Of a stretch of DNA of 64,000 nucleotides, positions 41,255 to 41,340 are shown in pieces. The stretch lies in NCBI RefSeq assembly GCF_056746865.1, contig NZ_CM163382.1; one strand, 5' to 3'. A program made the position numbers and the translations under genes. How positions within the stretch are numbered: the first letter of the stretch is position 1; each line of letters starts with the position of its first letter. Under the pieces are notes generated by a model. The model made no database searches and had not been told where the DNA came from. It saw nothing but the letters and a program-made list of their open reading frames with translations.

Positions 41255-41340
41255 CCGCGTCTTATCAGGCCTACAAATCCGAACCGTAGGTCGGATAAGG
41301 CGTTCACGCCGCATCCGACAAACAGCGCCTGATGCGACGT
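41255..41340. repeat. REP (repetitive extragenic palindrome) cluster between cpsG and cpsB
   Basis: Imperfect palindromes of the gcctgatgcgacg...cttatcaggcctac and gtaggtcggataaggcg...gccgcatccgac type read directly in the intergenic region. Confidence 0.75.

Follow-up and report, generated by a model that had tools for sequence, protein, structure and literature searches.

REP elements at two junctions of the colanic acid operon of Escherichia coli: a BIME-2-type array before cpsG and a solitary REP after wzc

Palindromic repeats between the genes of a long operon raise two questions: whether they are copies of a known repeat family and whether they influence the expression of the genes on either side. 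We addressed these questions for the colanic acid (wca/cps) operon in a stretch of DNA of 64,000 nucleotides (RefSeq assembly GCF_056746865.1, contig NZ_CM163382.1; here called the window). The original prediction placed REP elements between cpsG and cpsB (site 1) and between wcaA and wzc (site 2) and suggested that they may form transcript-stabilizing or partially terminating structures. The window is from E. coli, and several sequenced strains match the region around site 1 at 100% identity. The operon lies on the minus strand with the gene order of the K-12 cluster, and the genes named at both junctions proved to be correctly assigned (Table 1). Other Rfam matches above threshold were a second JUMPstart at 31509-31547 (-), presumably the leader of the O-antigen cluster, a histidine operon leader at 5116-5239 (+), and the sRNA STnc240 at 2303-2377 (-).

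Table 1 Positions of genes, spacers, and repeat features of the colanic acid operon in the window
Feature	Position	Strand	Description
JUMPstart with ops GGCGGTAGCGTG	55679-55717	-	Operon leader; Rfam RF01707, 57.3 bits, and sequence
wza	54361-55500	-	Colanic acid operon
wzb	Between wza and wzc	-	Colanic acid operon
wzc	51747-53909	-	Colanic acid operon; stop codon at 51747-51749
wzc-wcaA spacer	51655-51746		92 nt
Complete y REP GCCGGATGCGGCGTGAGCGCCTTATCCGGC+CTAC	51689-51722	-	Site 2; lone unit; matches head and tail patterns
wcaA	50815-51654	-	Colanic acid operon; start at 51654
cpsB	41341-42777	-	Colanic acid operon; stop codon UAA at 41343-41341
cpsB-cpsG spacer	41149-41340		192 nt
Half z2 arm GCCTGATGCGACG	41327-41339	-	Single arm; 1 nt from the cpsB stop codon
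Complete y REP GTAG+GTCGGATAAGGCGTTCACGCCGCATCCGAC	41286-41319	-	Inverted relative to z2; 30-nt palindrome on the plus strand; inverted repeat I2
Tail-to-tail linker z2/y AAATCCGAACC	41275-41285		11 nt; position of the short "S"-type linker in BIME-2 (PMC3333891)
Complete z2 REP GCCTGATGCGACGCTGCCGCGTCTTATCAGGC+CTAC	41239-41274	-	32-nt imperfect palindrome and CTAC tail on the plus strand; 5'-GUAG... in mRNA; inverted repeat I1
One 88-bp BIME-2 unit (z2+linker+y+linker)	41239-41326		Alignment of the window, K-12, and CPF6
algC RNA motif	41153-41202	-	Rfam RF02929; 77.3 bits versus gathering score of 33.8; full length, 1-52
cpsG	39778-41148	-	Colanic acid operon; AUG at 41148
wzxC-wcaK spacer	36777-36848		72 nt

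REP elements at the two junctions

A REP is an imperfect palindrome of 30 to 40 nt with GTAG at its foot and an internal mismatch in its stem (PMC3333891). In a comparison with the REP consensus, the head pattern matched eight times against 0.44 matches expected, and none of 100 shuffled sequences reached eight. The tail pattern matched exactly the three full REPs (0.03 matches expected), a number never attained by the shuffles. All three full units carry GTAG/CTAC tails, typical two-mismatch stems, and 14-nt arms that are 86% complementary. Head-pattern matches at 53518 and 61224/61232 were judged to be due to chance, as they contain mismatches, lack a GTAG tail, and fall in coding sequence. 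The segment at 61224-61244, GCTTGATGCGGCGCATCAGGC, is short and perfectly palindromic and looks like two back-to-back REP heads; it has no GTAG tail, is probably coding, and is probably a chance occurrence.

Genome searches gave matches at 57,086 places in 5,434 records, with a median of 10 per genome, and the query was repeated only in its REP segment. Of 5,426 complete E. coli genomes, 5,425 contained that segment, with about 10 copies in each. Its matches away from the locus lie under no annotated gene, and both sites studied here are intergenic. In a 301-nt search, the Rfam family naRNA4 (RF02564), which is based on the y+z2 sequence of REP325, aligned at 35 to 39 bits (E value of ~1e-5). 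These scores are below the gathering score of 59.5 and point to REP sequence in common, not to membership in that sRNA family. Column by column, the units agreed with both halves of naRNA4: the z2 REP of site 1 aligned to the z2 half, and the y half was matched nearly base for base, the y REP of site 1 being a near-perfect match to its consensus. Anatomy, pattern matches, and Rfam alignment thus bear out the proposal that genuine REP units lie within the operon at both junctions, and on these sequence grounds we rate the REP identity of the two sites as essentially certain.

In the mRNA, site 1 reads as the cpsB stop codon, 1 base, the half z2 arm, a 7-nt linker, y, an 11-nt linker, and z2, followed by a 36-nt spacer, the algC motif, the Shine-Dalgarno region, and the cpsG AUG. 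The half z2 arm is a 13-nt direct repeat (D1) of 41239-41251 at a spacing of 88, which delimits an 88-bp y+z2 unit bounded by a direct repeat. The same half arm forms an inverted repeat with the 5' arm of z2 (I3; 13 nt, 85% complementary, 56 nt apart). The interval first proposed for this cluster, 41255 to 41340, was right at its end; its start falls in the loop of the z2 REP, and the cluster spans 41239-41339. BIME-2 elements consist of y and z2 REPs with a short linker, arranged in tandem at strain-variable copy number (PMC3333891). Alternating y and z2 REPs and short linkers were found at site 1, with tandem copies in other strains and variable copy number. Site 1 is a BIME-2-type array made up of a single 88-bp unit and a residual half z2.

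The second site had also been described as a cluster; in the window it is a solitary y REP. Its GUAG lies 24 nt and its stem 28 nt past the wzc stop codon. Translation resumes at wcaA 34 nt after the REP, a short spacer that counts against an attenuation reading. The K-12 REP is identical in position, with one loop substitution. The known REP/BIME-2 elements of E. coli (Gilson, Bachellier, Hofnung; Ton-Hoang et al. 2012, PMC3333891) share the 30- to 36-nt imperfect palindromes with a GTAG tail, the alternation of y and z2 across short linkers, the strain-variable tandem 88-bp units, and the ~10 related copies per genome. Compared with them, the array at site 1 is short (one unit and a half) and site 2 is a lone y REP, but nothing essential differs.

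Near the his genes, the segment 12327-12402 (+), just 3' of the hisI stop codon (12317-12319), contains an atypical REP-like hairpin, GGTAAGCGGATGCGATGTTGTCGTCGCATCCGGC, and then a hairpin and T-tract that looks like the his operon terminator. A REP in hisI-wzz is also on the list of Iguchi et al. (PMC3158064).

Alleles of the two sites within E. coli

Iguchi et al. (2011) described REPs at wcaK-wzxC, cpsG-cpsB, and wcaA-wzc; every strain they examined had the wcaA-wzc REP, and REPs were involved in indels at the other junctions (PMC3158064). That study covered six O157 strains and dealt with recombination, not expression, whereas ~5,400 genomes and 45 other species were sampled here. We counted alleles of site 1 in a systematic sample of 60 rows taken along the ranked matches in complete E. 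coli genomes. The one-unit allele of the window accounted for 31 of the 60 rows. Two units (280-nt spacer; CPF6) were found in 3 rows and three units (368 nt; SC407 and LR-50) in 2. The K-12 type (9 rows) has a 104-nt spacer in which a half z2 arm is the sole REP remnant. A REP-free allele (5 rows; UTAK-4 and O169:H41) has a 100- or 101-nt spacer with a TAG stop codon for cpsB and an unrelated small hairpin, and a 128-nt form (1 row; ETEC4070) retains the half z2 and y after a 64-nt deletion. The other 9 rows had no match at the locus. In E. whittamii, cpsB-cpsG contains two units.

K-12 is thus an atypical, collapsed state at cpsB-cpsG in which the full REPs have been lost. Because the K-12 and REP-free alleles have no full REPs, complete REPs are dispensable there for a functional operon; K-12 makes colanic acid despite having no complete REP at site 1. 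The REP-free allele is no clean empty site: ~33 nt, GTAGTTGAATAATCAACCGGATTAATTCTCCGG, including the TAG stop codon and the small hairpin, stand in place of the REP segment and its 23-nt right flank. The REP-free and REP-bearing haplotypes are related by replacement and not by simple insertion. A recombination breakpoint at the REP edge, of the type put forward by Iguchi et al., was considered for two three-unit strains that matched only up to the REP, and was rejected, as the 3' end of their cpsB is 98% identical to the window. The apparent breakpoint arose because the three-unit array and the piece-joining rule truncated the match.

Units at site 1 would be gained and lost between the 13-nt (or 88-bp) direct repeats by slippage, homologous recombination, or the transposase associated with REPs, TnpA_REP. 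This enzyme cuts z2 iREPs in vitro at GCC|TGAT (PMC3333891), and the half z2 arm begins with GCC|TGAT. With this sequence at the unit edge, TnpA_REP could drive unit gain and loss; slippage and homologous recombination would give the same products.

A systematic sample of the same kind was taken for site 2. The single y REP of the window and K-12 was found in 34 rows. A 177-nt spacer with an iREP, a half y, and a y (ATCC 8739) was found in 14 rows, and a 128-nt spacer with an iREP and a half y (ST131) in 11. None of the E. coli alleles sampled at site 2 lacks a full hairpin after wzc. In the 128- and 177-nt alleles this is a different REP, with the foot of its hairpin 11 nt from the wzc stop codon, inside the 15-nt stalling range considered below. 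The wzxC-wcaK spacer is REP-less in the window but contains two y+z2 units, or four REPs, in K-12. The K-12 insert is flanked by CGACAACG...CGGCAACG and the window has a single CGGCAACG, a possible target duplication.

The spacer at site 1 also contains an algC RNA motif, a member of its Rfam family by score (Table 1). It lies upstream of a phosphomannomutase gene, cpsG, and stops 5 nt short of the ATG of that gene. The motif is separate from the REPs although it shares their spacer, and no E. coli allele, not even the REP-free one, has lost it. A search for a conserved word of its 3' half in 38 other enterobacterial loci detected that half in 33. The 3' part, CAGGGCYAACTGTTGCCTGAAAAAGGGTAA, is conserved across genera, and the 5-bp hairpin varies yet stays paired (GGCCG/CGGTC, CTCC/GGAG, GACTC/GAGTC). 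In K-12, UCAGGCAAU, which is the orphan half REP together with AAU, shows perfect complementarity to AUUGCCUGA within the algC motif. The K-12 minimum-free-energy fold pairs the two segments, which could be a matter of chance. In REP-bearing alleles, the same half-REP arm sits in the z2 hairpin instead of pairing with algC.

Operon junctions in other enterobacteria

Loci of other species were anchored on WcaE in 48 enterobacterial genomes, and their junctions were extracted. For wzc-wcaA, we required a spacer of at least 40 nt and a local hairpin at least as stable as -14 kcal/mol. Such a hairpin was present in 39 of 45 species (87%). The hairpins came from unrelated repeat families: no fewer than 11 species had an E. 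coli-type, REP-like one and no fewer than 17 a CCCTCTCC...GGGAGAGGG one, and 11 species had others. In 6 of the 45 species, the wzc-wcaA spacer was 20 to 34 nt long and had no hairpin.

Among the 14 junctions from wza to cpsG, nine never exceeded 32 nt (or overlapped) in any species. Spacers of at least 40 nt were found at wcaE-wcaF in 9 of 46 species, at wcaF-gmd in 10 of 47, and at wcaI-cpsB in 1 of 42; the cpsB-cpsG spacer was at least 41 nt in every species. The longer spacers at wcaE-wcaF, wcaF-gmd, and wcaI-cpsB hold the same repeat families, including ERIC-like ones. These other repeat-capable junctions were occupied in only 2 to 21% of species and the nine short junctions in none. ERIC-like elements (e.g., GTGAATCCCCAGGAGCTTACATGAGTAAGTGACTGGGGTGAACGAGG) and another element of ~130 nt are inserted in the operons of Citrobacter, Phytobacter, Buttiauxella, and Silvania, at one locus each for wcaI-cpsB, wcaE-wcaF, and wcaF-gmd and at five loci for cpsB-cpsG. 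Insertions of these kinds at various junctions indicate that several repeat families colonize the colanic acid operon. The occupation of wzc-wcaA by unrelated families hints either at selection for a hairpin or at an old, permissive landing pad.

Possible effects on expression and alternative readings

The predicted RNA hairpins have free energies of -19.2 (y), -20.5 (z2), and -19.5 (site 2 REP) kcal/mol. The RNA of site 1 (195 nt) folds at -79.6 kcal/mol (z = -5.1 versus shuffles), and that of site 2 at -29.2 kcal/mol (z = -2.0). A scan of the minus strand at both loci found no hairpin followed by a U-tract; the hairpins are followed by AAUGAAUG... at site 1 and by AAGCAAAC... at site 2. An intrinsic (Rho-independent) terminator was therefore ruled out for either site. 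The C/G ratio is 0.5 to 1.0 around site 1 (G-rich) versus 1.3 to 1.5 around site 2 (C-rich). The G-rich RNA of site 1 would make a poor Rho loading (rut) site, and the local composition appears to favor Rho loading at site 2, not at site 1. The predicted accessibility of the cpsG ribosome-binding site was unchanged by zero to three units (unpaired probability of the last 20 nt, 0.65 to 0.71), and an effect of REP number on cpsG translation through folding of this site was dropped.

The two sites belong to the REP/BIME family of E. coli, a family of dispersed extragenic palindromes. On balance, we lean toward a reading in which these mobile repeats colonized spacers and their hairpins would, by analogy, modestly favor upstream mRNA. 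Mobile or recombinogenic repeats would have settled in the few spacers of the operon that do not overlap. During Rcs-induced transcription, hairpins of about -19 to -20 kcal/mol would probably block 3'-to-5' exonucleases, and some Rho-dependent attenuation would probably occur, mainly at the C-rich wzc-wcaA site. The upstream mRNA (wza-wzb-wzc; genes up to cpsB) would then modestly outlast or outnumber the downstream segment. RfaH recruited at ops would damp the termination component, with the modified RNA polymerase reading through weak signals such as REPs. Given the ops element in the leader, the polymerase should resist termination signals of REPs, which limits any attenuation role.

Rahn and Whitfield (2003) reportedly showed that transcription of the E. 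coli K30 cluster is attenuated after wzc and that RfaH relieves this attenuation. The group 1 capsule attenuator after wzc (E. coli K30, Klebsiella cps; PMC3438125, PMC2516531) occupies the same boundary between export module and glycosyltransferase genes in an RfaH/JUMPstart operon; in contrast to that dedicated, terminator-like structure, the hairpin of the E. coli colanic acid operon lacks a U-tract and is a generic copy of a REP. Similar stem-loops follow wzc in Klebsiella cps clusters (PMC3438125), and a "stem-loop transcriptional attenuator" immediately after wzc has been asserted for the colanic acid operon itself (PMC2516531). The REPs of malE-malF and hisJ-hisQ (Newbury 1987; Stern 1988) have the same proposed combination of upstream-mRNA stabilization and partial Rho-dependent attenuation. 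A further parallel is REP325/naRNA4 in yjdM-yjdN (Harris et al. 2026 preprint), with the same intra-operon y/z2 hairpins between codirectional genes. REP325 both terminates transcription partially, in a Rho-dependent manner, and stabilizes upstream mRNA, and tandem gene pairs with a REP show upstream-biased expression genome-wide (bioRxiv 10.64898/2026.03.23.713779). REP325 differs in having a longer array and experimental support, whereas the sites here score 39 versus 59.5 bits on naRNA4 and belong to an operon with RfaH/ops. REPs are also found at the 3' ends of Rho-dependent transcripts (PMC6061677).

Published induction folds under Rcs (wza 47, wzb 45, wzc 17, wcaA 11, wcaC 5.7, wcaF 12, and gmd 9, with wcaE as an outlier at 72; PMC5105897) describe a gradual gradient with no step isolated at a REP. 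This counts against a role; it is not decisive, because the values are fold changes rather than abundances. By analogy with the systems above, the role of stabilizer or partial Rho-dependent attenuator put forward in the original prediction is plausible. The functional model is plausible but unproven, with a better case at site 2 than at site 1, and its main rival is that the repeats are neutral passengers.

Under that rival, REPs persist as selfish or neutral sequences because insertion elsewhere in a packed, translationally coupled operon is harmful, and any effects on expression are incidental and unselected. Much of the variation described above fits: the variable presence and copy number of REPs at site 1, including the REP-free allele and the K-12 remnant; the wzxC-wcaK spacer that is empty in the window and has four REPs in K-12; and the sporadic presence of the same families at wcaE-wcaF, wcaF-gmd, and wcaI-cpsB. 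With nine of 14 junctions at or below 32 nt or overlapping in all species, there are few landing places, and the biochemistry of TnpA_REP (PMC3333891) explains mobility and amplification. The 6 of 45 species without any hairpin after wzc point the same way. Set against this are the occupancy of wzc-wcaA in 87% of species by unrelated families, compared with 2 to 21% at other repeat-capable junctions, the full hairpin after wzc in each E. coli allele sampled, and the bias of expression by REPs in genome-wide data. We consider passengers a real possibility that falls short of being probable. Another reading, in which lineages repeatedly and independently recruited unrelated selfish palindromic repeats, among them E. 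coli-type REPs, the CCCTCTCC...GGGAGAGGG family, and ERIC-like elements, to the junctions after wza-wzb-wzc and before cpsG, with the hairpin selected as operon "punctuation" and the array of zero to three copies serving as a strain-specific dial, seems to us rather unlikely.

Two further readings place the effect at other levels. The y+z2 BIME-2 of site 1 could act in DNA as a binding or cleavage site for DNA gyrase (or Pol I) that relieves positive supercoils of the ~20-kb operon. The BIME-2 architecture of site 1 suits this idea, as does the cited binding of gyrase, Pol I, and IHF to REP/BIMEs (PMC3158064; Espeli and Boccard 1997 in the references of PMC3333891). We regard it as very unlikely, as the site is missing from K-12 and the REP-free alleles, site 2 is only a single REP, and unrelated repeats occupy the same places in other genera. 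Alternatively, a REP near a stop codon could stall the ribosome, leading to mRNA cleavage and trans-translation and lowering CpsB or Wzc. In the account summarized in PMC12306157, this mechanism (Liang, Rudd and Deutscher 2015) needs a REP no more than 15 nt from the stop codon. The half z2 arm 1 nt past the cpsB stop codon, with its potential to pair with the 5' arm of z2 over a distance of 56 nt (I3), and the hairpin foot 11 nt from the wzc stop codon in ATCC 8739 and ST131 are compatible with such stalling. In the window, however, no complete hairpin lies within 15 nt of a stop codon and only the half REP abuts that of cpsB: the first complete hairpins begin 21 to 22 nt past the cpsB stop codon and 24 to 28 nt past that of wzc, and the long-range pairing I3 is unused in the minimum-free-energy fold. 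We regard down-regulation of translation as very unlikely.

REPs at these junctions and their indel polymorphism are already in the literature, as is the proposal of an attenuator hairpin after wzc. The fuller allelic series and the repeated occupation of wzc-wcaA by unrelated repeats across genera are mildly new. The operon is relevant to biofilm formation and stress tolerance, and the present observations carry little weight as a discovery. For annotation, they separate the cpsB-cpsG spacer into two things, a variable BIME-2 array and a conserved algC motif. By analogy with other REPs, those studied here probably only fine-tune the balance of upstream and downstream expression. Were the punctuation model true, the BIME-2 array of zero to three copies would tune cpsG-wcaJ-wzxC and downstream genes, and hence colanic acid output. 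If zero to three units do change the cpsB:cpsG ratio, E. coli would offer a natural allelic series for testing REPs as tunable noncoding expression dials.
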